64,000 bases of DNA, from contig JAFVYY010000020.1 of NCBI GenBank assembly GCA_017508405.1, forward strand, positions 529 to 64,528, given 5' to 3'. Within the stretch, counting starts at the first letter, position 1, and each line of letters begins with the position of its first letter. The translations under genes were made by a program, and so were the position numbers. Below the pieces are notes generated by a model that worked only from the letters and a program-made list of their open reading frames with translations, had not been told where the DNA came from and made no database searches. Origin of the DNA: Clostridia bacterium (lineage in GTDB: Bacteria; Bacillota; Clostridia; Oscillospirales; CAG-272). Of the stretch, positions 33,053-48,385 are shown piece by piece.

Positions 33053-33115
33053 ATACGTACCTCCTTTTTCCGTATTTTTAACTTCAAATTCAGATTTTAT
33101 TGCGTATAAATCAGA

Positions 33116-33146
33116 AGAGGAACAAACCTATTAAGCTTGTTCCTCT
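33116..33146 (-). terminator. Putative terminator of glcK
   Basis: AGAGGAACAA (33116-33125) pairs with TTGTTCCTCT (33137-33146). The U-tract on the minus strand is weak. Confidence 0.45.
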
Positions 33147-33180
33147 TTTGTAATTTATAAACGAATATGTAATTTACGCA

Positions 33181-34143
33181 TCAAATACCGAGAACGGCAG
33201 CACCGAGAATGCCTGCATCGTTACCAAGCTCAGCGATCTTGATCTGTGTTGCTGCGCTTTCGCCGTTTCCGTAGGTTTCCTTTCTTACCTTTTCGCAAAG
33301 GGGCTTCAGAAGATAATCCTTTTCGTTACATACTCCGCCACCGATGGAAAGAACGTTGGGCTGGAAGATATTTATCATTGTTGCAACGCCTGATGCGAGA
33401 TAATCAATGTATTCATCAACTATTTCGGCGCCAACCTTGTCACCCTGCTTCATAGCTGCAAACGCAACTCTTGCATTAACGGCATTGAGATCTCCGTTTA
33501 TCATATCTTCAATAATAGATTTCTCGCCGTTTTCTCTTGCTTTGATAAGGTGCTCCTTTGTCATGTTAACAAGACCTGTTGCGGAGCTGTATGTTTCCCA
33601 ACAGCCCTTTCTTCCGCATGTGCACTGCTTACCACCCTTTTGAATTACAACGTGACCAAGCTCTGCTCCTGCGTGATTGAATCCGGAGTATACCTTGCCG
33701 TCAAGAACGATGCCACCGCCAAGACCTGTACCAAGTGTTATCATTACAGAATATTTTGCGCCTTTGGCTGCGCCTACAATAGCTTCTGCCTTTGCAGCTG
33801 CATTGGCGTCGTTTTCTATATATACCTTTTCAATTCCCAAATATTCCTTTAAAAGGTCGGCGATAGGGAAATTGTTAAAAGGAAGATTGTTTGCATACAC
33901 AACAACTCCCGTATCGGAATCAGCAGTACCGGGTGTAGCAATACCCGCATATGCGAAATCCTTTAAAGTAAGTCCCGCATTTGCAATCAGCTTTTTACAA
34001 AGTTCTGCCATATCCTTGATGATAAGCTTACCGTCTCGATTTGCAAGGGTCGGAACACTACCCTTTGAGATGATCTCATACTTTTCGTTTACGATGCCTG
34101 CGGCGATGTTAGTTCCGCCAAGGTCAATACCCAAATAATACAT
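33181..34143 (-). CDS. glcK: ROK-family glucokinase
   Basis: YYLGIDLGGTNIAAGIV, the Zn motif HVVIQKGGKQCTCGRKGCWETY and IGGGV. Confidence 0.88.
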   Translation of the reverse strand: MYYLGIDLGGTNIAAGIVNEKYEIISKGSVPTLANRDGKLIIKDMAELCKKLIANAGLTLKDFAYAGIATPGTADSDTGVVVYANNLPFNNFPIADLLKEYLGIEKVYIENDANAAAKAEAIVGAAKGAKYSVMITLGTGLGGGIVLDGKVYSGFNHAGAELGHVVIQKGGKQCTCGRKGCWETYSSATGLVNMTKEHLIKARENGEKSIIEDMINGDLNAVNARVAFAAMKQGDKVGAEIVDEYIDYLASGVATMINIFQPNVLSIGGGVCNEKDYLLKPLCEKVRKETYGNGESAATQIKIAELGNDAGILGAAVLGI

Positions 34144-34196
34144 AAATTCAGCCTTTCCGGCAAAACTGGGAATGTTTGTGTGTTTTGCTCCTTTTT

Positions 34197-34225
34197 ATTA
34201 TAAAATATTAAGGTTGAATTGTCAA
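34197..34225 (-). promoter_or_regulatory. Consensus sigma-A promoter for glcK
   Basis: On the minus strand: TTGACA (34225-34220), 17-nt spacer, TATAAT (34202-34197). Both hexamers match the consensus perfectly. Confidence 0.7.
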
Positions 34226-34382
34226 GATAGTATTTCAAAAATATTAAATTTAAGTTTATTTTCACGCAACCGTCAAAAAATCTACATATTTTTTTTATGT
34301 CAAAAAATCGAACCGTAAATTGTGCATGTTGCACAACGTGAAAAAATAAAAAAATTTATAAAAATTTATCATCAAACGGCTT

Positions 34383-34429
34383 GACAAGAAATAAATGACT
34401 GTAAATCAAGGACTTTTTCGACAAGAAAT
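34383..34429 (+). repeat. 10-bp direct repeat GACAAGAAAT, two copies, in the long AT-rich intergenic region
   Basis: Copies at 34383-34392 and 34420-34429, start positions 37 bp apart. Confidence 0.5.
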
Positions 34430-34548
34430 CCTTTTCACTCAAAGGAATGCTGCAGGGTAAGTTAACAATTTATTCATAAATAGGGCCTGTATGTCCAATG
34501 ATTGCGAAATTTTTTTTCCTACTTATAATTAATATAGAAAAAGCGTTC

Positions 34549-34577
34549 TTGACTTTGGACATGATTTATGATAAAAT
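34549..34577 (+). promoter_or_regulatory. Sigma-A-type promoter of the seven-gene transport locus
   Basis: TTGACT (34549-34554), 17-nt spacer, TAAAAT (34572-34577), with an extended -10 TG at 34569-34570. Confidence 0.6.
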
Positions 34578-34620
34578 GGATTCACAAAAGGTTATATTTG
34601 TGCATAATCACATATATCCG

Positions 34621-34641
34621 ATCCCGCCCAACCGGCGGGAT
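34621..34641 (+). other. GC-rich stem-loop in the predicted 5' leader of the locus
   Basis: ATCCCGCC (34621-34628) pairs with GGCGGGAT (34634-34641). No U-tract follows. It ends 14 nt upstream of the RBS. Confidence 0.45.
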
Positions 34642-34667
34642 ATTACTTGCAAAATGGAGGAATTCTT

Positions 34668-37600
34668 ATGAAAGCAAAAGCAAGAAAAGCGCTGGCGTTA
34701 TTCCTTTGTATCGTTATGCTCGTCGGTACAATGATAACGGCAGTATCCGCTGCTTCCGCTGGTACCAGTGGGAATAAGGGTGGAACGACATCGATTGATG
34801 ACGTTACCGATATCCTTAACGCAATATCCTACTCAAAGTACTATGCAAAGTATGCGAATGTCAAGAAGGGTGAGGGAACGATAGTAATTCCCGCTCTCAA
34901 CTATGACAAGGACAACACTACGGCGGCTGTTACTGAAAAAGACGGCCATTACGGTGTTGACGATGCATTACTCATTCCCGAAGTAGGAAAAGTAAGCTGG
35001 ACCTTCGACGTCCCGTCCAACGCTCTTTACACTATTGAAATCGAGTACTGCCAGAACGACGGCGGTAAGAAAACTTCAATTGAAAGAGCCTTTTATCTTA
35101 ACGGAGAAGTTCCCTTTTCCGGCGCTCGTTCCGTAATTCTTACTAAAACATGGAAGTACGACTACGTTATTGAAAACGGTAAGGAATCATTTAAGCATGA
35201 CGGAAAAGAAGACAGTGATGAAAGAGGAAATGATATTCGTCCCGGTATGTCAGCTGATCCTAAGTGGACAACGTACGCAATTTCAGATGCTAACGGATAT
35301 TACAACGATCCTTTCCAGTTCTATTTCAAGGCGGGAAAGAACACTATAACTCTTGAGGGCTCAAGAGAGTCTGTTGTAATCAAGTCCATTAAGCTCGTTC
35401 CCGCAGAGGACAATATTTCATATGAGGAATACCGTAAGCTTTATACTGATAACGCTAATGGCGTAATCGGTAAAGTAGAGGCTGAGAATCCTGTGAATGT
35501 ATCCCACGTTACCGTATACCCCGTTTATGACAGAACTTCCTGTATCACAAGCGGACTTACAGGTGAACAGTCTGCTAAGGTTACAAAGTACAACACTATA
35601 GGCGGTACACAGTGGCAGAATGTAGGCGAGTGGGTTGAATACGTTGTTGAGGTTCCAAAGGGAGCGGCAGGTTATTACAACATTCCTGTTCGTTATAAGC
35701 AGAACTTGCTCAGCGGTATGTTCGTGTCAAGAAGAGTTTATATTGACGGCTCGGTTCCTTTCGAAGAAGCAAATTACTGTAACTTCAATTTCAGCGAGGA
35801 CTGGGAGGTAAGAAATCTCGGTAACGGCGACACGGATTATCAATTCTATCTTTCTGAGGGCAAGCACGTCATAAGACTTGAGGTTGTTCTCGGCGATATG
35901 GGACAGCAGATAGAGCAGGTTAGTGAATCACTTACAGTAATCAATAACTGCTATCTTGAAATACTCAAGCTTACAGGTAGTACACCTGACGAAGACCGTA
36001 CATACGGCTTCTCAAGAGTAATGCCCGACGTAATTACATCTTTGCTTGAGGAATCAATCAGACTTAAGGGAGTGTACAACTACCTTACCGAGAAGACAGG
36101 ACTTAAGGGTCAGCAGACAGCTACACTTGAGCAGATCTTCAATCTTCTCCACAAGATGGCAAGCGACGAAACTGAAATTGCTAAAAATCTTGAAACACTT
36201 AAGTCTCAGATCGGTAACCTCGGAACATGGGTAAATACAGCTAAAACTCAGCCCCTTCAGGTTGACTATATACAGGTACAGAGTCCCAGTGAGGAAGCAC
36301 CTAAGAGCGAAGGTAACTTCTTCCAGTCACTTTGGTATGAGATTAAGCTTTTCTTTTATAGCTTTATAGTAGATTACAATGCACTTGGCGATTCCGACAA
36401 GGTTGGCGGAGAGCCTGTAGAGGTTTGGATCACAACAGTTGCAAATACAACAGGTCGTGACCAGGCACAGATCGTAAGAACCCTCATTGAAAACGAGTTT
36501 ACACCTAAGACAGGCATAAATGCGAACATCAAGCTTGTAGCTTCCGGAACACTTCTTCCCTCAGTTCTTGCGGGAGTTGGTCCTGACGTATCCTTGTACG
36601 AAGGCAGCACGTCAATTATTGACTATGCTATCCGTGGAGCGGCAATGCCTCTTAACGAATTTGTTAAGCAGGATCCCGATGTTCTCAGCAGATTCCCTGC
36701 AGCAGCTGTTGAGCCTTTGACACTTTACAGCTACACACATGATGAAGACACTGATACATATCTTAAGGAAGAGATCCTTTACGGTCTTCCCGACAAGATG
36801 GACTTTTCAATGATGTTCTATCGCAAGGATATCCTTTCAGACCTCGGTCTTGAAATTCCCAAAACATGGGACGATCTTCTTGCTATGATCCCCGTACTTC
36901 AGTATAACAACATGGAAATCGGTATCCAGAAGGATATTTACACGTTTATTCACCAGAGTAACAATGTTGTATACGATAACGGCGGTATGGAAATCAACTT
37001 TGATAACACAGGCGTTCTTAAGGCATTTACAAAGCTCTGTAATATGTTTACACAGTACTCATTGCCTTATCAGTACGACTTTGCTAACCGTTTCAGAACA
37101 GGTGAAATGCCTATCGGTATTGCATCCTACGGTATGTGTAACCAGCTTGAAGTATTCGCAACGGAAATTTCAGGTCTTTGGGGCTTCGTTCCGCTTCCCG
37201 GTTACGCTTACACCGATGACAATGGTAACATTGTAGAAATCAACAACACTTCCAACGCAGGCGTTTCCGGATGCTTGATGCTTAGAGGATGCGATAATCC
37301 TTCTAATGCTTGGGAGTTTATGAAGTGGTATACAGACAAAGATTATCAGGCTGAATACTCTAACGAAATCGTTGCTCTTATGGGTATTTCCGCAAGACCT
37401 TTGATCGCTAACATTGAAGCTATTTACGAGCTTCCTTGGACAAACGAAGAGGCTGCGAACATAAGCGCACAGATGCAGAATCTTAAGGGCGTTCCCAGCC
37501 ATCCCGGAAGCTATTATCTCCAGAGATATATAGATTTCGCGTTTCTTGCTGCATATAACAACGGAGTGGATCCTGCAGACGCTATGTTGAGCTATGTTAA

Positions 37601-37754
37601 TACAATTAACAAGGAGCTTACAAGAAAGCGTAATGAGTTCAACTACGTTACAATGGACTACATCGAAGAGTTGGGTTATGACACCTTAGAGCAATTCGAG
37701 TGGGCTAACTCAAAGAAGATAACCGTAAAATCCTACAGAGATTATTTGAAATAA
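34668..37754 (+). CDS. Giant extracellular solute-binding protein: signal peptide, two tandem CBM-like beta-sandwich repeats, a helical linker and an SBP family-1-like domain
   Basis: ATG at 34668 with GGAGGA 6 nt upstream; the track start at 34647 is a TTG. The signal peptide is MKAKARKALALFLCIVMLVGTMITAVSA. Internal repeats are visible (FYLNGEVPF vs VYIDGSVPF; FQFYFKAGKNTITLEG vs YQFYLSEGKHVIRLEV). The C-terminal approx. 450 aa (EPVEVWITTVANTTGRD...) resemble CUT1 sugar-binding proteins. Confidence 0.8.
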   Translation: MKAKARKALALFLCIVMLVGTMITAVSAASAGTSGNKGGTTSIDDVTDILNAISYSKYYAKYANVKKGEGTIVIPALNYDKDNTTAAVTEKDGHYGVDDALLIPEVGKVSWTFDVPSNALYTIEIEYCQNDGGKKTSIERAFYLNGEVPFSGARSVILTKTWKYDYVIENGKESFKHDGKEDSDERGNDIRPGMSADPKWTTYAISDANGYYNDPFQFYFKAGKNTITLEGSRESVVIKSIKLVPAEDNISYEEYRKLYTDNANGVIGKVEAENPVNVSHVTVYPVYDRTSCITSGLTGEQSAKVTKYNTIGGTQWQNVGEWVEYVVEVPKGAAGYYNIPVRYKQNLLSGMFVSRRVYIDGSVPFEEANYCNFNFSEDWEVRNLGNGDTDYQFYLSEGKHVIRLEVVLGDMGQQIEQVSESLTVINNCYLEILKLTGSTPDEDRTYGFSRVMPDVITSLLEESIRLKGVYNYLTEKTGLKGQQTATLEQIFNLLHKMASDETEIAKNLETLKSQIGNLGTWVNTAKTQPLQVDYIQVQSPSEEAPKSEGNFFQSLWYEIKLFFYSFIVDYNALGDSDKVGGEPVEVWITTVANTTGRDQAQIVRTLIENEFTPKTGINANIKLVASGTLLPSVLAGVGPDVSLYEGSTSIIDYAIRGAAMPLNEFVKQDPDVLSRFPAAAVEPLTLYSYTHDEDTDTYLKEEILYGLPDKMDFSMMFYRKDILSDLGLEIPKTWDDLLAMIPVLQYNNMEIGIQKDIYTFIHQSNNVVYDNGGMEINFDNTGVLKAFTKLCNMFTQYSLPYQYDFANRFRTGEMPIGIASYGMCNQLEVFATEISGLWGFVPLPGYAYTDDNGNIVEINNTSNAGVSGCLMLRGCDNPSNAWEFMKWYTDKDYQAEYSNEIVALMGISARPLIANIEAIYELPWTNEEAANISAQMQNLKGVPSHPGSYYLQRYIDFAFLAAYNNGVDPADAMLSYVNTINKELTRKRNEFNYVTMDYIEELGYDTLEQFEWANSKKITVKSYRDYLK

Positions 37755-37815
37755 TCGCTAATAGTCATATGACAGATCACACAAGTCGGAAATACTGTTT
37801 AAGGAGATAATTTAG

Positions 37816-38940
37816 ATGGCAAATCAAGATAATAATAAAAAAGCTGTCAACGTACGCAAAATCTCCAAGGATGAATTCAAAAAGGTCTATTTTGAAACGT
37901 CTCTGGAGCCTGTAGCGTTGGCATCAGATCTAAATGTGAATAGTACCGACGCCGCAGTTGTAGCTGACGAGCCCGATACAGCCTCCTCTGCCAATGCAAA
38001 GGCAAAGAAGGTTGTAACAGCTCGTAAGGATATGACTATGGCTCAGTGGACAATTAAGGAAATGAAGAGAAATAAAGTAGGCTATTTTATGGTAGCGCCC
38101 TTTATGCTCGTATTTACTTTGTTTACATTGTTCCCCGTACTACTTTCATTTGCGCTCAGCTTTACATCATTTAATATGCTTGAATTCAAGGCCGATATGT
38201 TCGTTGGTATAAGCAACTATACAAGATTGTTCTTCGACGATGACATATTCCTTCAGGCATGTAAAAACACTCTCGTATTCGCAATGGTTACAGGTCCTGT
38301 TTCTTACATACTCTCATTCCTTGTAGCATGGTTCATTAACGAGCTTGCTCCTAAGATCAGAGCTCTTGTAACTCTTGTATTCTACGCTCCGTCCTTTGGT
38401 GGTAACGCTTACCTCGTATGGCAGACTCTTTTCCATGATGACGCTAACGGTTGGGTAAACGGTACACTCTTGGATCTCGGACTTATCAACGAACCTATAC
38501 TTTGGTTCCATGATGAAAATTATGCTATGACTCTCTGTATCGTAGTTGCTCTGTGGATGTCACTCGGTACATCGTTCCTTTCATTTATCGCAGGTCTTCA
38601 GACCATGGATAAGAGCTTGTTTGAGGCCGCTTCGGTTGACGGTATCAAGAACAGATGGCAGGAGCTTTGGTACATTACGCTTCCTCAGATGAAGCCGCAG
38701 TTGCTCTTCGGTGCGGTTATGGCTATCACAGGCTCATTCGGTTTCGGCGCAGTAGTTACCGCTCTTTGCGGATTCCCGTCAGTTAACTACTCTTGTCACA
38801 CCATTATGCACTGTCTTGACGACTATGGTGGAACAAGATGGGAGGTTGGTTATGCATCTGCTATTGCAACTATCCTCTTCTTTATCATGATTGGCGCAAA
38901 TATGCTGGTACAGAAATTAATTTCGAAGGTAGGACAATAA
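37816..38940 (+). CDS. CUT1 sugar ABC transporter permease (MalF-like), pair 1, with a hydrophilic N-terminal extension of about 75 aa
   Basis: EAA loop EAASVDGIKNRWQELWYITLPQMKP and multiple TM segments. AAGGAG lies 8 nt upstream of 37816. An alternative internal start lies at 38038. Confidence 0.85.
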   Translation: MANQDNNKKAVNVRKISKDEFKKVYFETSLEPVALASDLNVNSTDAAVVADEPDTASSANAKAKKVVTARKDMTMAQWTIKEMKRNKVGYFMVAPFMLVFTLFTLFPVLLSFALSFTSFNMLEFKADMFVGISNYTRLFFDDDIFLQACKNTLVFAMVTGPVSYILSFLVAWFINELAPKIRALVTLVFYAPSFGGNAYLVWQTLFHDDANGWVNGTLLDLGLINEPILWFHDENYAMTLCIVVALWMSLGTSFLSFIAGLQTMDKSLFEAASVDGIKNRWQELWYITLPQMKPQLLFGAVMAITGSFGFGAVVTALCGFPSVNYSCHTIMHCLDDYGGTRWEVGYASAIATILFFIMIGANMLVQKLISKVGQ

Positions 38941-38941
38941 T

Positions 38942-39823
38942 ATGCAAAAAGTGCAAAAAATGAGAATTAGAAATCATCAAGTTGTCCTTAACCGTTCGGT
39001 TGGTGGCGACGCGGGAATCTTTACGTTCCTCGCTATCATGGGCTTCTTTATGTTCCTGCCTATGGTATATGTCATCATGCAGTCACTTAAGCCACTTGAT
39101 GAGTTATTCATCTTCCCCCCAAGATTCTGGGTACAGAAGCCCACATTCGGCAACTTCGGAAGCTTGTTTAAGCTCCTTGGTGAATCCTGGGTACCTTTCT
39201 CCAGATATATTTTCAACACAGTGTTCATTACGGCAGCGGGTGTATTCGGAAACCTTTTCTTCTCCTCACTTGCAGCGTATGCACTTTCTAAGATTCCTTT
39301 CCCCGGAAGAAACGGAATCTTTAAGACCATAAGATCATCCCTTATGTTTACTTCAACAGTTACAGCTATCGCGAACTTCCTTACACTTTCTACATTAGGT
39401 TTGCTTGACAACCACCTTGCAATCATCATTCCTGCATGGGGTTCAACACTTGGTCTCTACCTTATGAAGCAGTTTATGGATTCATCTATTACCGATACAG
39501 TTCTTGAGAGCGCACGTCTTGACGGATGTAGCGAGCTTAAGACATTCTGGGTAATCGCGATGCCTATGGTTAAGCCCGCTTGGCTTACACTTATCATTTA
39601 TTCATTCCAGGGACTTTGGAATGCAGGCGCTTCCGTATACATTTACAGTGAAGAGCTTAAAACACTTAACTACGCAATTGGTCAGATCACATCAGGTGGT
39701 ATTGCTCGTGCAGGCGCATCTGCGGCAGGTACAGTTATTATGATGATTGTTCCTATTCTCGTATTTGTAATTTCACAGAGTAATATCATTGAAACAATGG
39801 GATCCAGTGGTATGAAGGATTAA
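38942..39823 (+). CDS. CUT1 carbohydrate ABC transporter permease (MalG-like), pair 1
   Basis: ESARLDGCSELKTFWVIAMPMVKP. 293 aa. Starts 1 nt after the previous stop. Confidence 0.88.
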   Translation: MQKVQKMRIRNHQVVLNRSVGGDAGIFTFLAIMGFFMFLPMVYVIMQSLKPLDELFIFPPRFWVQKPTFGNFGSLFKLLGESWVPFSRYIFNTVFITAAGVFGNLFFSSLAAYALSKIPFPGRNGIFKTIRSSLMFTSTVTAIANFLTLSTLGLLDNHLAIIIPAWGSTLGLYLMKQFMDSSITDTVLESARLDGCSELKTFWVIAMPMVKPAWLTLIIYSFQGLWNAGASVYIYSEELKTLNYAIGQITSGGIARAGASAAGTVIMMIVPILVFVISQSNIIETMGSSGMKD

Positions 39824-39832
39824 GGAGGATTT

Positions 39833-42004
39833 ATGAAGAAAATAACAAAAATATTAGTATTCGTAATGATGCTCCTCATGGTATTCCCTATGGTAATATC
39901 AGCTATCGTGCCTTACGAATCCTACACATATGATATTGACGGATTTTCAGTACCGTCACCTCACGCATACGTTCCGGACATTCTTGTAGACTCTGCATAT
40001 ATCGGCGAGCTTGCAGGCGGACTTGATGTTCCCCTTGTAAGCCCCACAGACGTTGAGGCAGATGCTGATGGCAACGTATATATTACTGATAACGGCAATA
40101 ACAGAATCGTGGTGCTTAACGATGAATACAGACTTAAGTACATAATCAAGGATTTTGTTAATGCAAGTGGAGTAGATGATACATTTAATAAGCCCTCAAG
40201 CACATTTGTAGTTGATTCAGGTGCTTACAGAGGACTTTACGTATGTGATACAGCTAACTCAAGAATCTTGGTTTTCAATCAGGATAATGGTGAGCTTATT
40301 CGCGAAATCAACAAACCCAAGTCAACACTTCTCGTAGATACAAACTATTCTCCTGTAAGCTGCGTAGTTGATAAATACGGTCGACTCTACGTTGCTGCTA
40401 ACGACAGAACAGAAGGTATCATGGTTATGACCATTGATGGTAAGCTTATTAACTTTATAGGCGCACCTAAGGTAACAGTAACCGCAGCAGAGGCACTTCT
40501 TGCTCTCTTGAGCCCTAAGGCTAAAGAGCTTCAGTCAAATATTGCTACAACATTCGTAAACCTTGATATCGACCAGACATCAAATGAGTTCGTTTACGGT
40601 ACATGTATCTTTAACAAGGAAGAAGAGCAGAATCAGATTGCTGCCATTACATCCAAGGATGGTACATATTCACCTACAAGACTTCTTAACGCTAAGGGTA
40701 AGGATATTATGAAGCGTAACGGCTTCTTCCTTCCTGCCGGTGAGGTTGATATAATTACAAAGGAGCTTCAGTCCTCTACAAGCATTCCCGCAGGACCCTC
40801 ACAGATAAGAGATATTTCAAGCGGTCCTAACGGAACATGGTCAATCATTGATATCAACAGATGTAAGGTATATACATACGATAACGACGGTAACCTTCTT
40901 CACATTTTCGGTGACGTTGGTGACCAGCTCGGTAACCTTACGTTCAAGTTTGCTCAGTCCTTGACATATCAGGGCACAAAGATCTTGGTTCTTGATATTA
41001 ACAAGAATGCGTTTACAGTATACCGCAGAACAGAATACGGTGACCTTCTTGATGAGGCTATAAGCCTTCAGAACTCCAGTGAGTATGATCTTGCTATTGA
41101 AAAGTGGGAAGAGGTACTTGCAAGAAACAACAACTTTGATACAGCGTATGTAGCTATCGGTAAGGCTCTTCACAGAAACGGTAAATATTCAGAGGCTATC
41201 GAATATTTTGAAACAGCATTCGATACAGAAAACTATGCTACCACCTTTAAAGAGGTTCGTAAGACCGTTATGGAGGTATGGTTCGTACCTGTAATCTTCC
41301 TTATCGTAGTATTGTTTATTATCCTCGGCAAGATTTTTGGCTGGGTAGGAAAGGTAAACAAAAATGCAACGTTTAAATCCGGCAGAAGAACTCTTAAGGA
41401 GGAGCTCTGTTACGGTATGCACATTATTTTCCATCCCTTTGACGGTTACTGGGATTTGAAGCATGAGCAGAGAGGTTCAGTAAGAGCGTCACTTATTTAC
41501 GTTGTACTTACTGTGCTTGCATTCTATTACCAGTCTATTGGTACAGGCTTCTACAAGAATCCTCAGGGTGGTTCAAACTCAATCTTTATGACAGCAACAT
41601 CTATTATCGTTCCGCTTCTTCTTTGGGTGATCGGTAACTGGTGCTTCACTACATTGTTCGACGGCGAAGGCAATATGAAGCATATTTTCATGGCGTCTTC
41701 ATACGCATTGTTCCCCGTACCTCTCTTTGTAATTGTTTCTACAATTCTTACAAACTTCTTGGTAGGTGACGAAGCGCAGATCGCTACAATGCTTATAACA
41801 CTCGCATATGTATGGATGGCATTCCTTCTTGTCTTTGGTATGCAGACCATTCATAACTTCTCAACAGGTAAAAACATTGTAATGATACTTTGTACACTTG
41901 TTGGTATGATATTTATTGTATTCATTGCATTGCTGTTTACAACTCTTGCATCTAAGATGATAGGATTTGTTGAAACCATTGTAGATGAAATTTCATTCAG
42001 GTAA
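39833..42004 (+). CDS. Signal peptide + NHL-repeat beta-propeller + TPR-like segment + C-terminal Yip1-like polytopic membrane domain
   Basis: 723 aa. NHL-like repeats are DADGNVYITDNGNNRIVVLN, GLYVCDTANSRILVFN and GRLYVAAND. The TPR-like stretch is EYDLAIEKWEEVLARNNNFDTAYVAIGKALHRNGKYSEAIEYFETAF. Then come a TM segment (VWFVPVIFLIVVLFIILG) and IFHPFDGYWDLKHEQRGS plus about 5 TM segments, which recall bacterial Yip1-family proteins (from memory). Confidence 0.7.
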   Translation: MKKITKILVFVMMLLMVFPMVISAIVPYESYTYDIDGFSVPSPHAYVPDILVDSAYIGELAGGLDVPLVSPTDVEADADGNVYITDNGNNRIVVLNDEYRLKYIIKDFVNASGVDDTFNKPSSTFVVDSGAYRGLYVCDTANSRILVFNQDNGELIREINKPKSTLLVDTNYSPVSCVVDKYGRLYVAANDRTEGIMVMTIDGKLINFIGAPKVTVTAAEALLALLSPKAKELQSNIATTFVNLDIDQTSNEFVYGTCIFNKEEEQNQIAAITSKDGTYSPTRLLNAKGKDIMKRNGFFLPAGEVDIITKELQSSTSIPAGPSQIRDISSGPNGTWSIIDINRCKVYTYDNDGNLLHIFGDVGDQLGNLTFKFAQSLTYQGTKILVLDINKNAFTVYRRTEYGDLLDEAISLQNSSEYDLAIEKWEEVLARNNNFDTAYVAIGKALHRNGKYSEAIEYFETAFDTENYATTFKEVRKTVMEVWFVPVIFLIVVLFIILGKIFGWVGKVNKNATFKSGRRTLKEELCYGMHIIFHPFDGYWDLKHEQRGSVRASLIYVVLTVLAFYYQSIGTGFYKNPQGGSNSIFMTATSIIVPLLLWVIGNWCFTTLFDGEGNMKHIFMASSYALFPVPLFVIVSTILTNFLVGDEAQIATMLITLAYVWMAFLLVFGMQTIHNFSTGKNIVMILCTLVGMIFIVFIALLFTTLASKMIGFVETIVDEISFR

Positions 42005-42018
42005 AGGAGGAAAAGCTA

Positions 42019-44907
42019 ATGAAAAAGAGAATAACAGCAATAATCCTTGCCGTGATTATGATTTTATCCACTCTTGGAACTTTGGTAATATCTGCCGCTG
42101 ATGAAAGCAGTACTACTACAAAAACACTTGCGGTAATTAAAGAAGCTGATGACGCAAGACACAAGAGTGAGCTTGCGAAAATTAAAAAGATGACCGCAAT
42201 CAAAACCTCTTCTACATCTAAGTATCAGTTTTTCTTTGATGAAAAGACCCTCACTGTTGCTATCCAAAATAAGGCAACCGGTGAGATTATGATGACAGAC
42301 AGAGGAACAAAGGACGAATACGGCTCACAGCTCAGAATTGACTACAGACAGTTAGGTGCTACAAATATTTCTACTTATTTTTCATATAACAACTGCGTTA
42401 AGTATGAAAACATTCAGTACGAATATGATATAAGTGGCACAGATACAATTAAGGTAATCTATACCTTGGGTGAGCTTAACCCCGTACCCTGTCTCCCTGA
42501 TACTATCGGTTATAACGAAATGCAGGCTATTCTTAAGGAATTAAGAGAATCAGGATTGTTTACAGACTCGGAAATCAACACATTCTATAAATCCTACAGA
42601 TATGCTTCAGTTACTCTTAAAGAGCCTGATGAAAACGGTGAAAGAAAGCCGGTTTCCGATTCTGTCAACAAAGATGACTTGATTGAAAAATACGGTGACT
42701 ACGGAATCGAAACAGAGGCTATTTACTATAACGTAGTAGGTCAGATTACTAGAAAGAAGACAAATGAAGCAATGCTTAAGGCCATCGGTTATACCGAAGA
42801 GCGTAAGCTTCAGGATTATGCAGTAATCAATTTCGAAGAGGCTACAGCTAACGTAGCGAGAATGACAATTCCCCTTGTTTATAAGATTACCGATACAGGC
42901 TTTACCGCAGAGGTAGATGCCGGAGAAATGAAATATCCCGATGTTGAAACATTTGCTATTGAAAGCCTTTGCATTTTGCCCTACCTTAATGCAGCAGAGG
43001 TTACAATAGACAACTCTGTTCCCAATGTTGAAAAAAAGATTACAGATTCAGGTTATATATTCATTCCTGACGGAAGCGGCGCGCTTGTAAGATTTGAAGA
43101 CGTTGCAAGACAGAGCTCTACAAACGATATTACGTTCAGCCTTTATGGAACTGATAACGCTTTCTATAAGCTTACTCCTAAGAATGAAGAGCAGATGACA
43201 ATGCCTGTATTTGGTATGGTGCTTAACGAGCTTCCTTATAAATCAGGATTCTTTGCAATTATTGAAAGCGGAGATGCGGTTGCATCTATAACATCATCTC
43301 ACAGACGTTTGTCTCACTCCGTATACGCTTCATTCAAGCTTTCTACACAGGACTCCCGTACTATCCCCGGAACATCAACTCGTGCAGAAGGTAAGCTTAA
43401 TATGAAGACAGATGCAATTTTCACCGAAAAGTGTACTGTTAGATATATTATGCTTAGCGATAAAGAGGCTATGAACGTAACCTCAAATGACGTATTTGAT
43501 ACATCTTATATCGGAATGGCAGAGTGCTACAGAGATTATCTTATGGATAATGGCGCTCTTGAAAAAATAACCTCCGTTGATGAAAAGACAAAGCTCTTTG
43601 TTGAAGTTCTCGGATCAATGAAGGTTGAAGAAAAAATTGCTACATTCCCCGTAACAGTTAATAAGCCTCTTACAACCTTTGAGCAGGTTATGATTATGCA
43701 GCAGGAGCTTACAAGCGGTACAGCTGTTATTAACGGCGAAACCGTTAAAGCAGCTAAAGACGGCGTAGGTCCTATTAACTTTATCCTTACCGGCTTTGCA
43801 AACGAGGGACTTTCCTCTAAATATCCCACAAAGATCAAGTGGATCCGTTCCGTAGGAGGAAAGGATGGCTTTAATGAGCTTCTTGCAGATGCTGAGGCAA
43901 AGGGATATGAGGTTTCACCTAACTTTGATTTTGTTTACTCCACATATATTTTTGGATCAGATAATATCAAATACAGAAAATATGGTTCAAAATCCCTTGA
44001 TAACAGATTCTCAATGAAGCTTACATATGACCCCGCTTTACAGATGCTTTCATATATTGGCGGTATTGTAATTTCCGCGGGAGCATATGATTACGCTTAC
44101 GAAAAATTTGCAGATCAGGCAATTAAGTACGATATGAAGAATATCGCAGTACCTACTCTTGGCTCCGATCTTAACTCCAACTTTGATCCTACTGAGGATA
44201 AAGACGGTAATTTGAAGAACTTCCTTTTCAGAACCGACTCATTAAGACTTACACAGCAGCTTCTCGGTAAGCTTTCCGGTAAGGAAGAAAGCAGCACAGA
44301 TTATAAGCTTCTTACAAAGAAGGGTAACGCATTTTCTTATAAGTATGTAGACTACATTCTTGACATTTCACTTGATAGTAGCCGTCGTACTAACGAATCA
44401 GAGGCTGTTCCTTTCTTGGGAATCGTTCTTCACGGCAGCAAGACATTTGCAGGTGAAGCTCTCAATATGGACGGTGATGCTGATTACAGCTTCCTTAAGA
44501 CGCTTGAAAGCGGTGCAAACCTTTACTTCACTTTGGCTTACGATAACGTTGAAAATCTTAAGCTCAATTGGAAATTTGCAAATTACTATTCAGTAGACTA
44601 TGCTCTTTGGTTTGAATATGTTGTAACTAAGTACAACGAGTACAATGCGCTTATGGCATCAAAGCAGACCAGCTACATTACAGAGCATGAATTCATTAAC
44701 ACATCCGAAGGCGGAAGCAGATACAATGTTTACCGTAACGATGAAACTAAGGGCGCTCTTGAAAACTCACGTGTTGTAAGAGTTGAGTACAGTAACGGTG
44801 AAGGCTTCTTCCTTAACTATAACGCAGACTTTGGCGTTAAGGTTGAATATCAGGGCAAAACATATAGCATACCCGCTCTTGGATATGTTACATACACAAG
44901 TAAATAA
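42019..44907 (+). CDS. Large secreted or anchored protein of unknown function (possibly DUF5696-like)
   Basis: 962 aa. N-terminal signal/anchor MKKRITAIILAVIMILSTLGTLVISA. AAAGGAGG RBS. I recognise no catalytic motif. The DUF5696 suggestion rests only on my memory of gene neighbourhoods (large unknown protein + Yip1 + CUT1 permeases). Confidence 0.55.
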   Translation: MKKRITAIILAVIMILSTLGTLVISAADESSTTTKTLAVIKEADDARHKSELAKIKKMTAIKTSSTSKYQFFFDEKTLTVAIQNKATGEIMMTDRGTKDEYGSQLRIDYRQLGATNISTYFSYNNCVKYENIQYEYDISGTDTIKVIYTLGELNPVPCLPDTIGYNEMQAILKELRESGLFTDSEINTFYKSYRYASVTLKEPDENGERKPVSDSVNKDDLIEKYGDYGIETEAIYYNVVGQITRKKTNEAMLKAIGYTEERKLQDYAVINFEEATANVARMTIPLVYKITDTGFTAEVDAGEMKYPDVETFAIESLCILPYLNAAEVTIDNSVPNVEKKITDSGYIFIPDGSGALVRFEDVARQSSTNDITFSLYGTDNAFYKLTPKNEEQMTMPVFGMVLNELPYKSGFFAIIESGDAVASITSSHRRLSHSVYASFKLSTQDSRTIPGTSTRAEGKLNMKTDAIFTEKCTVRYIMLSDKEAMNVTSNDVFDTSYIGMAECYRDYLMDNGALEKITSVDEKTKLFVEVLGSMKVEEKIATFPVTVNKPLTTFEQVMIMQQELTSGTAVINGETVKAAKDGVGPINFILTGFANEGLSSKYPTKIKWIRSVGGKDGFNELLADAEAKGYEVSPNFDFVYSTYIFGSDNIKYRKYGSKSLDNRFSMKLTYDPALQMLSYIGGIVISAGAYDYAYEKFADQAIKYDMKNIAVPTLGSDLNSNFDPTEDKDGNLKNFLFRTDSLRLTQQLLGKLSGKEESSTDYKLLTKKGNAFSYKYVDYILDISLDSSRRTNESEAVPFLGIVLHGSKTFAGEALNMDGDADYSFLKTLESGANLYFTLAYDNVENLKLNWKFANYYSVDYALWFEYVVTKYNEYNALMASKQTSYITEHEFINTSEGGSRYNVYRNDETKGALENSRVVRVEYSNGEGFFLNYNADFGVKVEYQGKTYSIPALGYVTYTSK

Positions 44908-44924
44908 GAAAGGAGGACAAATAT

Positions 44925-45989
44925 ATGGCTAAAAATAAAGATTTTACAACCACAAGTGCTGACGGTACAGTCTTGTATCATATGGCCCCGAAAAAGAAAA
45001 TGAGACTTACTCTTTCAAAGAGAAAGGCTCTTTCCGGATGGCTTCTTGTCCTTCCCTTCGTTATTGGATTGATTTTTGTATATGGTCCCATTCTTTTCTC
45101 CTCGTTACGTGCAGTATTTTATTCCGTAGAGGTTAAGCTTACAGGTATCGAATACTATTTTGTAGGCATTGGAAACATTAAATGGGCGTTTCAGGACGAC
45201 TTGTATTTTGTTGACTCACTTGTAAATGGTTTTAAGAGTCTTCTTATTCAGGTTCCTGCAATCATTATCTTCTCACTCTTTATGGCTATTATACTTAACC
45301 AGAAGATGAGAGGACGTGCAGCTTTCCGTGCAATATTCTTCCTTCCTGTAATTCTTTCAATAGGTATTATTGATACTATTGATACGAATGCTCAGCTTAC
45401 AATGGCTGCTATTACAGGCGGTATTGATGACGGTACAGGTGCACTTACAGAGGGTGCTAACTCCTTCGTTTCAATGATGGACCTTAATAATTTGTTTGCA
45501 AATGTACAGATTGGCGGCGGATTCATGGAAATCGCTATGGGACTTGTTAACGACATATTCAATGTTGTTAGCCGTTCCGGCGTACAGATGCTTATCTTCC
45601 TTTCCGGTCTTCAGTCAATTTCCCCTGCAATTTATGAATCTTGTCAGATAGACGGTGCAAGCGCATGGGAAACATTCTGGAAGGTAACGCTTCCTATGAT
45701 AAGCCCTATGATTCTTGTAAACTCTATTTACACTCTTATTGATGCATTTACCGCATCAAGCAATAAGGTTATTAATCATATCTTCATTAATATTGGAGGT
45801 AACAGTAACCCAATTAACTCAATGTACGAATACGTAGACCCTGCAACCGGTGAAACAATTCACAAGCTCTTCTCAGATAACTCTCTCCGAACAACGGAGA
45901 TGTGGATATACGTTGTATTTATCTCATTGCTTGTAGTTGTTGTGGCATTGCTTATGAAAGCATTCGTATTCTATCAGAAGAGAGATTAA
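44925..45989 (+). CDS. CUT1 sugar ABC transporter permease (MalF-like), pair 2
   Basis: ESCQIDGASAWETFWKVTLPMISP. 354 aa. AAAGGAGG RBS. Confidence 0.85.
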   Translation: MAKNKDFTTTSADGTVLYHMAPKKKMRLTLSKRKALSGWLLVLPFVIGLIFVYGPILFSSLRAVFYSVEVKLTGIEYYFVGIGNIKWAFQDDLYFVDSLVNGFKSLLIQVPAIIIFSLFMAIILNQKMRGRAAFRAIFFLPVILSIGIIDTIDTNAQLTMAAITGGIDDGTGALTEGANSFVSMMDLNNLFANVQIGGGFMEIAMGLVNDIFNVVSRSGVQMLIFLSGLQSISPAIYESCQIDGASAWETFWKVTLPMISPMILVNSIYTLIDAFTASSNKVINHIFINIGGNSNPINSMYEYVDPATGETIHKLFSDNSLRTTEMWIYVVFISLLVVVVALLMKAFVFYQKRD

Positions 45990-46001
45990 GGAGGGGAGAA
46001 A

Positions 46002-47096
46002 ATGGACGCACCAAAAATTAAAAAAGAATCAAAAAACAAGATCCGTGTGGACTTTGAAAGAGCTCCTCTTTGGGAAAGAGTCAAGGGAAAATATTTCTCT
46101 ATGAAATTTGTAAAGGATGTTGTTTACAAGATATTCAGATTAGTACTTCTTGTCGGTGTATGTTTTGTAATACTTTATCCGTACATTTCAAAGATTGCAG
46201 ACTCATTCAAGATATTCCCCGACTTTCAGGATGTAACGGTTATCTACATTTCGACTAATCCTACGTTGGAACAGTATAAGTATATTATTACAGAGAATGA
46301 CTATTTCTTAGCGTTGCTTAATACGTTCTTGGTTTCTGCTTCAACCGCATTTGTACAGACTCTCGTTTGTGCGCTTATCGGTTACGGTCTTGCAAAATTC
46401 AAGTTCAGAGGAAGAAATTTACTTTTCGCAATAGTTGTTCTTACTATGATGCTTCCTCAGGATCTTATAAGACTTCCTATGCAGAATATGTTCTGTCGTT
46501 TTGATACAGAGCATCCTATAGGAATACTTATCAATAAGCTGTTTGGAACACAGGTCAGATTCGGTGTTGGTAATAGTGAAACTTGGGTAAAATTCTCAGG
46601 ATTTATTCCTCACTACTTGCTCTCAATAACAGGATTTGGTTTTAGAAACGGTTTGTTTATATTCCTTTTAAGACAGTTCTTTACAGGCGTTCCCGACGAG
46701 CTTGAAGAATCTGCTTATATGGATGGATGTACAGCCTTCAGAACCTTCTTCCAGATTATCATTCCCATTGCTATTCCTATGCTTATTACAGTATTTATCT
46801 TCTCGTTCTCGTGGCAGTGGACAGATGACTTCTACATCAATACATTCTGGACATCAGCTCACTGGACAGGAGATAACTCTATTCCGCTTCTCAGCAGTGG
46901 TAACTTCGTTACTAAATTCCCAAGCCAGCTTACATCTATGTACGGCGGCTCGGATAAGGTTGTTGGTTGGGACGCATATGTTAACGCGGTTAGCGGAACA
47001 TCTACAATTCTTATCGCTTTACCCCTTATTATTGCTTTCATATTCTTGCAGAATAAGATCGTTCAGGGTATTGAACGAAGCGGTATTGTCGGCTAA
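46002..47096 (+). CDS. CUT1 carbohydrate ABC transporter permease (MalG-like), pair 2, with enlarged loops
   Basis: ESAYMDGCTAFRTFFQIIIPIAIP. 364 aa. AAGGAGGGG RBS. Confidence 0.85.
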   Translation: MDAPKIKKESKNKIRVDFERAPLWERVKGKYFSMKFVKDVVYKIFRLVLLVGVCFVILYPYISKIADSFKIFPDFQDVTVIYISTNPTLEQYKYIITENDYFLALLNTFLVSASTAFVQTLVCALIGYGLAKFKFRGRNLLFAIVVLTMMLPQDLIRLPMQNMFCRFDTEHPIGILINKLFGTQVRFGVGNSETWVKFSGFIPHYLLSITGFGFRNGLFIFLLRQFFTGVPDELEESAYMDGCTAFRTFFQIIIPIAIPMLITVFIFSFSWQWTDDFYINTFWTSAHWTGDNSIPLLSSGNFVTKFPSQLTSMYGGSDKVVGWDAYVNAVSGTSTILIALPLIIAFIFLQNKIVQGIERSGIVG

Positions 47097-47118
47097 TATA
47101 CAGTCTACAAAATTAAAA

Positions 47119-47145
47119 AGAGCTTGGTTTTCCAAGCTCTTTTTT
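47119..47145 (+). terminator. Rho-independent terminator of the seven-gene locus
   Basis: AGAGCTTGG (47119-47127) pairs with CCAAGCTCT (47132-47140), followed by TTTTT. Confidence 0.8.
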
Positions 47146-47275
47146 ATATTAAACATTTGTCATATAATAATGATAGGTAGAGATACATGTGCTGTTCCTG
47201 TTAAAAAGCTTCTCTAAGCGTAAAGACATATCAAATGTAAATCCGATCGAGTCCGATACCATATATCAATTTAAA

Positions 47276-47316
47276 AGAGCAAGAGTAAAAGGAGAAAATC
47301 CTTTTATTCTTGCTCT
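47276..47316. terminator. Long hairpin terminator downstream of asd (minus strand)
   Basis: 18-nt arms at 47276-47293 and 47299-47316 with one mismatch. T-rich sequence follows on both strands. Confidence 0.7.
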
Positions 47317-47383
47317 GTTTGATTTTATGGATTATCTACAACAAGCATTATGCCGTCATTGTAACTATATATCAATCGGTATA

Positions 47384-48385
47384 TTAGTCAATAAGCGCTT
47401 CTGCAATTTGTACAGCGTTAGTAGCAGCACCCTTACGAACCTGGTCGCCGCAGCACCAAAGTGTAATTGCGTTGTCGTGAACAAGATCTTCACGGATTCT
47501 TCCTACGAATACAAGATCCTGATCGGATGTTACGATAGGCATGGGATAAATCTTGTTTTCACCGTCATCATAAAGCTTACAGCCCTTTTCATTAGCGATA
47601 GCATTCTTAACGTCATTAACTGAAAGCTTATCCTCTGTAATAACAGTTACTGATATGGAGTGAGAACGAACAACGGGAACACGAACACAGGTACAAGTAA
47701 CCTTAAGCTCGGGTAAATGAAGGATCTTTCTTCCTTCGTTCTGCATCTTCATTTCTTCTGTGGTGTATCCGTTTTCATTAAATGATCCGATCTGAGGAAT
47801 AAGGTTAGCGGCAATCTGATGCTGGAAAACCTCTACGTTGATATCTCCGCCGTTTACCATAGCCTTCATCTGATCCATAAGCTCAACCGGACCTGCAGCG
47901 CCTGCTCCACTTGTCGCCTGATATGTGGAAGCAACCATGCCCTTGATCTTTGAAAGCTTATTGATTGCATTTACAGCTACAAGAGTAATGATTGTGGAGC
48001 AGTTGGGGTTGGAAATAATGCCTTTATTCTTTCTTGCGTCGTCAGCATTGATTTCAGGCACTACAAGGGGAACGTCATCATTCATGCGGAATGCGCTGGA
48101 GTTATCAATAAATACGGCGCCCGCCTTAACGATATGGGGAGCAAGCTCCTTTGCAAGAGCATTTGATGCAGCGCCAAGAACGAAATTCATTCCTTCGAAT
48201 GCGTCTGCGCAAGCTAACTGAACCTCGTATTCCTTACCGCAGTAGGATATTTTCTTACCTACGGAGCGAGCGCTCGCAAGGAGTCTTAATTCACCCATAG
48301 GGAAGTTTCTTTCTTCGAGAACCTTAAGCATTTCTCTGCCTACGGCGCCTGTTGCGCCGAGAATTGCAACATTATATTTTTTCAT
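47384..48385 (-). CDS. asd: Aspartate-semialdehyde dehydrogenase
   Basis: VAILGATGAVGREM, NPNCSTI, and the C-terminus GAATNAVQIAE. Confidence 0.93.
   Translation of the reverse strand: MKKYNVAILGATGAVGREMLKVLEERNFPMGELRLLASARSVGKKISYCGKEYEVQLACADAFEGMNFVLGAASNALAKELAPHIVKAGAVFIDNSSAFRMNDDVPLVVPEINADDARKNKGIISNPNCSTIITLVAVNAINKLSKIKGMVASTYQATSGAGAAGPVELMDQMKAMVNGGDINVEVFQHQIAANLIPQIGSFNENGYTTEEMKMQNEGRKILHLPELKVTCTCVRVPVVRSHSISVTVITEDKLSVNDVKNAIANEKGCKLYDDGENKIYPMPIVTSDQDLVFVGRIREDLVHDNAITLWCCGDQVRKGAATNAVQIAEALID

Follow-up and report, generated by a model that had tools for sequence, protein, structure and literature searches.

An intact open reading frame (ORF) at 39833-42004 (+) of the 64,000-nt stretch of DNA analysed here (the window; contig JAFVYY010000020.1 of GenBank assembly GCA_017508405.1, a metagenome-assembled genome (MAG) of a Clostridia bacterium of the Oscillospirales lineage CAG-272) encodes a 723-residue protein in which an extracellular six-bladed NHL beta-propeller and two TPR repeats are joined, via a transmembrane (TM) helix, to a five-TM Yip1 domain. 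This NHL-TPR-TM-Yip1 protein, henceforth called the fusion, unites the products of what are two separate genes in Lachnospiraceae, Clostridiaceae, and Paenibacillus. It lies in an ATP-binding cassette (ABC) importer operon, directly upstream of the gene of a DUF5696 protein, which is itself followed by a permease pair (P3/P4; the pair upstream of the fusion is called P1/P2), and the evolutionary distances of its ectodomain co-vary with those of DUF5696, P3, and P4. We tentatively propose that the fusion is a non-catalytic organiser or tether of a DUF5696-P3/P4 glycan import unit, a reading that we consider plausible and just short of probable.

Architecture of the fusion protein

The fusion gene begins with ATG, its GGAGG ribosome-binding site is located 9 nt past the preceding permease gene, and its product is identical to MBR7100865.1, which carries the NCBI name 'YIP1 family protein'. 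The original prediction, made from the letters of the window without database searches, had proposed an extracellular NHL propeller and TPR segment fused to a Yip1-like membrane module. All strings that it had cited were found in the translation (DGNVYITDNGNNRIVVLN, aa 79-96; LYVCDTANSRILVFN, aa 135-149; GRLYVAAND, aa 183-191; IFHPFDGYWDLKHEQRGS, aa 532-549), and its three domain calls were upheld by hidden Markov model (HMM) searches, with each family scoring above its Pfam cut-off. NHL (PF01436) was matched with an E-value of 1.4e-8 (34.8 bits vs. a cut-off of 20), TPR_2 with 7.9e-7 (29.2 bits, just over the cut-off of 27), and Yip1 (PF04893) with 1.5e-17 (64.5 bits vs. a curated cut-off of 28.6), the last match covering aa 530-699, i.e., profile positions 2-172 of 173. 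Scores for TPR_1 and TPR_16 were under their Pfam cut-offs, as was that for SGL (PF08450; 22.0 bits vs. 26.3, E-value 1.4e-4). Judged by the features that define these families at the sequence level, the fusion is a bona fide member of Yip1, NHL, and TPR.

The protein starts with a signal peptide (aa 1-24; 39833-39904) consisting of an MKK n-region, a 17-aa hydrophobic core, and a VISA/IV cleavage site of the A-x-A type, which is conserved across orthologues immediately ahead of a strikingly conserved PYxTYTY motif. The extracellular six-bladed propeller follows (aa 25-400; 39905-41032), assigned from Pfam, profile matches to the PDB, AlphaFold2 strands, Foldseek, and conservation. Its N-terminal strand is the conserved aromatic PYESYTY, and an insert at about aa 210-320, modelled at low confidence, holds a conserved RLLNAxGxDIMxRNGFFxPxGEV stretch. 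Two TPR repeats, i.e., four helices, are located next to the membrane on its outer side (aa 401-464; 41033-41224), as indicated by TPR_2, by matches to consensus-TPR structures, and by the predicted helices. The extracellular NHL part had therefore been recognised correctly from the letters, and its size was corrected: instead of a propeller of about 450 aa, there is one of about 375 aa plus about 65 aa of TPR.

A stalk helix and TM0, the first TM helix (aa 482-502), were located at 41225-41341 by hydropathy and AlphaFold2. TM0 coincides with the hydrophobic segment that had been noticed near nt 41273 (VWFVPVIFLIVVLFIILGKIF, nt 41276-41338), and its counterpart in split-gene relatives is the C-terminal anchor of a separate NHL/TPR protein. 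The fusion junction, a predicted cytoplasmic linker with the HPFDGYWDLKHEQRGS motif (about aa 503-550; 41342-41482), was delimited by charge and conservation. It leads into the Yip1 bundle of five TM helices and a C-terminal helix (aa 551-723; 41483-42001), which was assigned from Pfam, hydropathy, AlphaFold2, and conservation.

The AlphaFold2 model, built on 49 homologues, reached a predicted local distance difference test score (pLDDT) of 77 and a predicted template modelling score (pTM) of 0.66. It shows about six four-stranded blades at aa 30-399, four TPR helices at aa 401-462, a continuous helix at aa 465-513, and Yip1 helices at aa 550-575, 584-609, 615-642, 645-673, and 681-722; hydropathy peaks likewise number five, so that both methods concur with the estimate of about five TM helices in the membrane module. 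When the ectodomain was searched with Foldseek, the NHL propellers of TRIM71, Brat, Thin, and the PknD-derived Pizza came out on top (E-values of 4e-13 to 1e-10 and target-normalised TM-scores of 0.70-0.78 for TRIM71, Thin, and Brat), with a weaker match to virginiamycin B lyase (E-value ~1e-10). A family profile searched against the PDB retrieved the NHL domains of PknD (1rwi), TRIM, and Pizza (best E-value 3.4e-27) and aligned aa 408-463 to consensus-TPR structures. For the Yip1 part, neither the family profile nor the whole-protein model yielded a PDB match.

Topology and sequence conservation

The segment following TM0 (about aa 503-550, 48 residues) carried a net charge of +4.3 on average in 85 orthologues. 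Since the protein carries a signal peptide at its N-terminus and this K/R-rich segment behind its first TM helix, the propeller and TPR repeats were placed outside and the HPFDGYWDLKHEQRGS motif inside the cell, in agreement with the ectodomain-out orientation proposed originally. Helix counting would further put the loops NWCFTTLFDGEGN (aa 602-614) and GMQTIHNFSTGKN (aa 669-681) in the cytoplasm.

Conservation was mapped as top-residue frequency over 85 fused and split sequences. Mean values were 0.88 at aa 528-550, 0.88 at aa 606-617, and 0.78 at aa 669-681, all predicted to be cytoplasmic, vs. 0.44-0.49 in the outside loops of the Yip1 bundle. In the HPFDGYWDLKHEQRGS motif region, 13 out of 23 positions were conserved to at least 95%, and its conserved form reads HPFDGxWDLKHExRGS. 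The ectodomain had a frequency of 0.65-0.70 and contained 49 near-invariant positions (≥97% in the 85 sequences), mostly canonical NHL Asp, Gly, and Arg plus aromatics; His, Cys, and Glu were absent from these 49 positions.

Occurrence of the fusion

A protein search returned 1,352 homologues of the fusion. The best 120 were all 705-752 aa long and covered 98-100% of the query at identities down to 53%, and those with a name were labelled 'YIP1 family protein [Clostridia bacterium]'. In a scan with one genome per species, at least 574 relatives were confirmed, of which the best 80 genome loci were analysed. These belonged to MAGs of uncultured Oscillospiraceae and 'Eubacteriales', including Candidatus Flemingiibacterium and Avispirillum, from the guts of ruminants, rabbit, chicken, and human.

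A sequencing or assembly artefact, in which two genes were merged by a frameshift or the loss of a stop codon in this MAG only, was ruled out, and we give it next to no weight. The two halves of the fusion do exist as separate overlapping genes in other Firmicutes, but the full-length fused protein is represented by more than 1,300 database clusters and by 80 loci of independent assemblies with the linker conserved, and the identical protein recurs on ENA, JGI, and Logan contigs besides the 64.8-kb MAG contig at NCBI. The fusion is accordingly genuine, as the original prediction had supposed while listing such an artefact among the ways in which it could be wrong.

The operon and its conservation

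Seven genes on the forward strand, spaced by 1-61 nt and each equipped with a GGAGG-type ribosome-binding site, form the operon in the order giant solute-binding protein (SBP), P1, P2, fusion, DUF5696, P3, and P4. The giant SBP (34668-37754; 1028 aa, SBP_bac_1) is identical to MBR7100862.1; the mechanically called ORF begins at TTG 34647, and the start at ATG 34668 is backed by the database entry. P1 (37816-38940) is of the MalF/UgpA type and has its EAA motif at aa 270, and P2 (38942-39823) of the MalG/UgpE type with its EAA motif at aa 189, both assigned by Pfam and type comparison. Downstream of the fusion follow the DUF5696 protein (42019-44907; 962 aa with a signal peptide, PF18952 E-value 1.9e-106), P3 (44925-45989; EAA motif at aa 238), and P4 (46002-47096; EAA motif at aa 235). 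P3 is a divergent permease of the MalF/UgpA type with three long loops predicted to be outside, and P4 a divergent one of the MalG/UgpE type whose predicted outside loops are long as well. MalF/MalG-type pairs, an SBP, and the 962-aa protein thus flank the fusion, which confirms its proposed placement between two permease pairs inside an ABC importer operon.

The permease paralogues (P1/P3 and P2/P4) share just 21-22% identity, and the EAA coupling motif is present in all four, which therefore make up two complete translocators. With an SBP_bac_1 protein and BPD_transp_1 permease pairs carrying the EAA motif, the operon has the features of a CUT1-like importer. Neither the operon nor the rest of the window encodes a MalK/MsmK-type ATPase, and none was seen in related loci. 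CUT1 sugar importers of Firmicutes usually share an ATPase encoded elsewhere (MsmK/MsmX).

The order SBP-P1-P2-fusion-DUF5696-P3-P4 was found in 80 out of 80 genome loci as far as the contigs reach, down to 43% identity, and complete cassettes of seven full-length genes were present in 61 of them. One complete Clostridia-type cassette (L061, contig JAGARL010000319.1) is filed under the archaeon 'Methanocorpusculum sp.', and this contig is most likely mis-binned in its MAG.

In the window, a 500-nt gap with promoter-like sites separates the operon from a divergent gene for a ROK-family sugar kinase (33181-34143 (-); Pfam ROK, E-value 1.2e-61). One of these sites, TTGACT-17-TAAAAT with TG (34549-34577 (+)), and a terminator-like hairpin with an 18-bp stem and a T-run after P4 (47276-47316 (+)) were identified by consensus match only. 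Within 33000-48000, which includes the 500-nt leader, no Rfam match for a regulatory RNA was obtained at E ≤ 0.1. The surrounding genes are of the housekeeping kind, with recG, DUF1846, and the ROK kinase upstream and asd-aspartokinase-hom-thrC downstream. Across the 80 fused-type loci, 395 flank ORFs were clustered. Housekeeping genes aside, the ROK kinase was the sole recurrent flanking gene, with a homologue upstream of the cassette in 25 loci; a conserved regulator or carbohydrate-active enzyme (CAZyme) was not among these ORFs, and the flanks varied with lineage. The ROK kinase is a possible but loose associate, and gives a weak hint that the imported product might be a hexose or N-acetylhexosamine.

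Fused and split forms

The Yip1 part was searched against 1.84 billion cluster representatives, which yielded 1,654 clusters, 191 of them at E ≤ 1e-30. Among the best 149 matches listed, 100 were at least 680 aa long and 18 were standalone proteins of 199-226 aa with a Met start and the same three motifs. The HPF.G.WDLK motif, named in the original prediction as a mark of small bacterial Yip1 proteins, is present in these standalone forms. A profile of the short forms matched at least 2,500 proteins from, e.g., Lachnospiraceae, Butyrivibrio, Clostridiaceae, Anaerotaenia torta, and Paenibacillus bovis.

For seven short forms, nine loci were examined. In all seven, the Yip1 gene (~207 aa) was preceded by a gene of 479-502 aa encoding a signal peptide, an NHL propeller, TPR, a C-terminal TM anchor, and a K/R tail. 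The two genes overlap or abut in six cases and are 35 nt apart in the seventh (L089); in Paenibacillus bovis, a GGAGG site is located just 5' of the overlapped Yip1 start. The split cassette reads giant SBP (956-978 aa)-P1-P2-NHL/TPR-Yip1-DUF5696-P3-P4, usually followed by a second SBP of ordinary size (SBP2), which was a lipoprotein in all four N-termini read, and is carried by Paenibacillus bovis, Anaerotaenia torta, Butyrivibrio, Clostridiaceae, and metagenomes. The comparison of fused with split forms that had been suggested at the outset thus found both in the same cassette; this makes the fusion a Rosetta-stone case, and the two proteins must therefore work together.

When Yip1 domains were placed in a neighbour-joining tree, the fused proteins were scattered among the split ones, and parsimony required at least 12 changes between the two states, which suggests repeated fusion or fission. 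The tree is weak, being built on a TM domain of 220 aa, and some of the short entries may owe their length to faulty gene calling, so that no firm conclusion on the number of fusions was drawn. CAZymes flanking the split-type loci differ from locus to locus (GH43, GH30, GH113/GH5/GH18, GH38, and CBM6), and so point to no single substrate of the cassette. A LacI gene was found near the cassette in some split-type loci only.

Further variants of the Yip1 subfamily include P0242 (998 aa), P0258 (912 aa), P0264 (883 aa), and P0241 (280 aa). Some fusions carry insertions of 150-280 aa in or ahead of the propeller, and P0241 has a lipoprotein-type leader directly on the Yip1 domain without a propeller.

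An invariant core and its co-variation

Metagenomes were sampled independently from the DUF5696 side, and at least 578 relatives were confirmed. A Yip1 gene was located immediately upstream of DUF5696 in 56 out of 59 loci with enough upstream DNA as scored by script, and in 58 out of 59 after the listings had been checked, as the script had missed Yip1 in two loci with overlapping ORF calls (L141 and L168). It was fused in 16 of the metagenome loci and split in at least 40, and two permease genes followed DUF5696 in 60 of 63. In four loci (L157, L166, L151, and L140), the unit [NHL+Yip1]-DUF5696-P3-P4-SBP2 stands alone; in L135 (5654-18613) and L132, giant SBP-P1-P2 is placed after the [NHL+Yip1]-DUF5696-P3-P4 unit; and in L134, the unit is directly behind the giant SBP, with P1/P2 absent in between. 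These rearranged loci therefore define an invariant core of NHL/TPR, Yip1, DUF5696, P3, and P4, with giant SBP-P1-P2 as a separable companion.

Pairwise-distance matrices were compared for 62 complete fused cassettes (Spearman correlation, taxon bootstrap). Ectodomain distances correlated with those of DUF5696, P3, and P4 at 0.89, 0.87, and 0.86, respectively, vs. 0.36 and 0.35 for P1 and P2 and 0.53-0.60 for the SBP. The preference of the ectodomain for DUF5696/P3/P4 amounted to a difference of 0.32 (bootstrap 95% confidence interval (CI) 0.23-0.42). Such a correlation demonstrates shared history or rate shifts rather than contact.

DUF5696 and the giant solute-binding protein

The AlphaFold2 model of the DUF5696 protein (pLDDT 85.8, pTM 0.84) predicts a beta-sandwich at the N-terminus and, behind it, a (beta/alpha)8 barrel. 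Foldseek retrieved two members of glycoside hydrolase (GH) family 129, i.e., 5opq (Zobellia 3,6-anhydro-D-galactosidase, E-value 1e-26) and 5wzn (Bifidobacterium alpha-N-acetylgalactosaminidase NagBb, E-value 1e-22, target-normalised TM-score ~0.72). Target-normalised TM-scores for GH129 were 0.69-0.73, and GH101, GH36, and GH31 came next. The predicted fold matches GH129/GH101 enzymes over most of their length, whereas sequence similarity to GH129 is marginal: the family profile had NagBb as its sole PDB match (E-value 0.029, ~10% identity), and the single sequence had none. In NagBb, Asp435 serves as the nucleophile and Glu478 as the acid/base. On account of these structural and profile matches, DUF5696 is predicted to be a GH129/GH101-like protein, probably of the alpha-glycosidase type, and it may represent an unrecognised glycoside-hydrolase-like family; a literature search found no paper mentioning DUF5696. 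In four loci, the DUF5696 gene is about twice as long (~1,900 aa; L026 8953-14808, L032 12187-17970, L051 12171-18116, and L063 12176-17890), implying extra domains in these predicted proteins.

With about 1000 aa, the giant SBP is over twice the usual SBP size. It comprises a signal peptide, an N-terminal extension of ~570 aa, and a C-terminal SBP_bac_1 domain (E-value 1.3e-19, aa 609-902), and its family profile matched Lin1841 in the PDB with 3.4e-27 on the C-terminal part. The extension contains a CBM35-like stretch (profile positions 306-403), matching the CBM35 region of a cycloisomaltooligosaccharide glucanotransferase (5x7g) with 5e-7.

SBPs of Gram-positive bacteria are normally lipid-anchored. 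The signal peptides of DUF5696 and the giant SBP are both ordinary, LPXTG is absent from the two proteins, and lipobox-like sites were detected in 3 out of 73 DUF5696 orthologues and 8 out of 67 giant SBP orthologues. As an argument for a protein tether, this survey of sequence motifs is only suggestive.

Comparison with known systems

YknW (Bacillus subtilis/amyloliquefaciens), a member of the Yip1 family, is reported to modulate assembly of the YknXYZ ABC exporter complex (PMC4887032); BawG of the bawcin cluster is a further Yip1-family protein accompanying an ABC transporter (PMC10707071). Both are fourth components of their transporters and can be likened to the Yip1 part of the fusion by family and description, being small Yip1-family (PF04893) proteins with five TM helices that are encoded in ABC operons of Firmicutes. 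They differ in accompanying MacB-type exporters with an HlyD/membrane fusion protein (MFP) partner and in lacking an ectodomain, whereas the fusion is found with MalF/MalG-type importer permeases, SBPs, and a glycosidase-like protein, and its NHL-TPR ectodomain is fused or paired. No MacB/FtsX permease with ATPase and HlyD/MFP was found beside the fusion, whose neighbours are BPD_transp_1, SBP_bac_1, and DUF5696; because a MacB/MFP partner is missing, the fusion is not a YknW-type system. Elsewhere in the window, 53862-56684 (-) encodes a 940-aa single chain of ABC ATPase and FtsX-type permease (MacB-like), which is 12 kb away and unlinked to the cassette.

For the eukaryotic YIPF proteins (Yip1p/Yif1p family), function is described as unknown, with a channel, transporter, or transmembrane receptor role suggested (PMC6682643). 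They share with the fusion the Yip1 domain and five predicted TM helices, and are otherwise distant relatives of the Golgi and endoplasmic reticulum that form hetero-oligomers and have neither a propeller/TPR ectodomain nor a link to ABC transport. PknD of Mycobacterium tuberculosis resembles the fusion in that a six-bladed NHL propeller on the outside is connected to the membrane by a single TM helix; unlike the fusion, it has no TPR, and its helix leads to a cytoplasmic Ser/Thr kinase instead of a Yip1 bundle without known output. The N-terminus of YIPF proteins faces the cytosol.

At the level of the cassette, Gram-positive polysaccharide utilisation loci are similar in combining a secreted glycosidase or glycosidase-like protein, carbohydrate-type SBPs, and MalFG-type permeases in one operon, and the SusC/D-type complexes of Bacteroidetes offer a functional analogy. 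To our knowledge, no Gram-positive locus has been described with Yip1, an NHL/TPR ectoprotein, DUF5696, two permease pairs, and an SBP of ~1000 aa as a fixed set. Literature searches returned no paper linking Yip1 with NHL, or Yip1 with GH43 in bacteria, and nothing relevant on Yip1 with ABC transporters and solute-binding proteins.

Proposed role and alternative explanations

If the fusion is an organiser or tether as proposed above, TM0 and the Yip1 bundle would be located beside the P3/P4 translocator in the membrane, the propeller and TPR repeats would hold the secreted DUF5696 protein, and perhaps also the binding protein, at the transporter, and glycan fragments would thereby be released at the import site. 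Most speculatively, the conserved cytoplasmic face of the Yip1 bundle might contact a cytoplasmic partner, i.e., permease coupling loops or a shared MsmK-type ATPase. This role was favoured because the ectodomain carries no catalytic signature and its best structural matches are binding-type NHL domains, because its adjacency to DUF5696/P3/P4 is invariant and its distances track theirs, and because DUF5696 and the giant SBP mostly have neither lipobox nor LPXTG and P3/P4 have long predicted outside loops. A looser argument is the precedent of Yip1 proteins with ABC transporters set by YknW and BawG. These observations agree with the original idea, in which a membrane module tethers an ectodomain that binds a partner or substrate, and the likely partners were narrowed to DUF5696 and the second permease pair.

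Several observations weigh against an organiser. One metagenome locus (L161, 3172-7913) has DUF5696-P3-P4 with no NHL/TPR or Yip1 gene detectable in the 3.1 kb upstream. The Yip1 TM part has no partner preference (difference 0.06, CI -0.05 to 0.19), and the correlation of the ectodomain may stem from co-inheritance or recombination between sub-modules instead of contact. As some orthologues of the giant SBP and of DUF5696 do have a lipobox, a protein tether appears not to be strictly required. The positive-inside signal is clear solely after TM0; the inner loops have no signal of their own, with an acidic DGEG loop among them. Conservation is highest on the predicted cytoplasmic surface, a fact that a purely extracellular scaffold does not explain. 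Moreover, the known Yip1 precedents accompany MacB-type exporters, not MalFG-type importers.

The conservation of the predicted cytoplasmic segments would be accounted for by a trans-membrane sensor or regulator, in which the propeller/TPR part detects a glycan or the loaded DUF5696 or SBP, and the cytoplasmic face of Yip1 gates the importer, e.g., by recruiting or releasing the ATPase. If the contact made by the conserved face were regulatory, this would be the better description. The NHL propeller that forms the outer part of the receptor kinase PknD (1rwi), the absence of an ATPase gene from the operon and window, by which the ATPase has to be recruited from elsewhere, and the transmembrane receptors named among suggested YIPF roles (PMC6682643) point in the same direction. 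We nevertheless consider a sensor unlikely, given that the fusion has no recognisable output domain, no regulator is conserved beside the cassette (LacI being confined to some split-type loci), and signalling is known for no Yip1 protein. The lack of partner preference in the Yip1 TM part, which correlates about equally with both permease pairs, is instead what would be expected of a purely intramembrane assembly or stability factor for both ABC translocators in the sense of YknW, which is reported to modulate YknXYZ assembly, with the ectodomain as a spacer or generic wall-associated domain. The standalone P0241, with its lipoprotein-type leader and no propeller, would also fit such a factor, which we regard as decidedly unlikely: the ectodomain is conserved like the TM part, with its 49 near-invariant positions in fused and split forms alike, an NHL/TPR gene was present in every cassette examined, and ectodomain evolution tracks DUF5696/P3/P4 specifically.

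That the propeller acts on the substrate ahead of import as an enzyme in its own right (a lactonase or lyase, of SGL or streptogramin-lyase type) was judged highly improbable. The weak SGL match, the presence of virginiamycin B lyase (Vgb) among the Foldseek matches, and several invariant Asp residues could be read in its favour, but the SGL score stays under the Pfam cut-off, the invariant Asp, Arg, and Gly residues appear to occupy canonical NHL repeat positions as judged from the NHL consensus, and the top structural matches are non-enzymatic NHL domains. Catalysis by Vgb needs His/Glu residues, and lactonases of the SGL family need metal-ligand residues; the ectodomain has no near-invariant His, Glu, or Cys. 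As the fusion fails both in the HMM score and in these residues, it is not an SGL enzyme. Returning to the organiser, its most far-reaching version would be a Firmicutes-wide, hitherto undescribed capture-and-import machine for glycans, made of NHL/TPR-Yip1, DUF5696, and P3/P4, in which the Yip1 protein physically couples the extracellular GH129-like enzyme to the translocator and talks to the ATPase via its conserved inner face; we consider this version possible, if on balance somewhat doubtful.

Other features of the window

The sole classical CAZyme found in the window is a GH127-type beta-L-arabinofuranosidase gene at 294-2099 (+), 32 kb off the cassette. At this position in a PP2C-kinase-rsgA housekeeping cluster, PrkC-type kinases typically carry PASTA repeats and a TM segment. 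The Ser/Thr kinase encoded in the window's cluster of this kind (16680-17630 (+)) is only 316 aa long, which holds the kinase domain and leaves no room for TM and PASTA. Four ORFs of 159-359 aa (18731-19810 (-), 6693-7211 (+), 9115-9594 (+), and 62208-62885 (-)) had no Pfam match at E ≤ 1e-4.

Significance

The sequence of the fusion is already deposited and auto-named, and the novelty is the recognised cassette and its implied role; neither the association of NHL with Yip1, nor DUF5696, nor this cassette was found in the searchable literature. The cassette is very common, with no fewer than 574 species-level genomes encoding a relative of the fusion, and extends over gut and rumen Clostridia, Lachnospiraceae, and Paenibacillus. 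Should the fusion be a passive anchor and nothing more, it would be an ordinary case of domain fusion, located in a sugar operon not yet characterised. If it is an organiser, it would be a new kind of accessory subunit for binding-protein-dependent sugar importers, and DUF5696 would be a new glycosidase-like family tied to uptake, with a bearing on glycan harvest by uncultured gut Firmicutes. Through the fused/split pair, the Yip1 domain gains bacterial partners that form a fixed set and are open to experiment. If the capture-and-import machine proves true, the cassette would be a Gram-positive counterpart, in logic, to the SusC/D complexes, and would for the first time give a Yip1-domain protein a defined molecular role and a set of partners, as well as providing a tractable bacterial model for the YIPF proteins.

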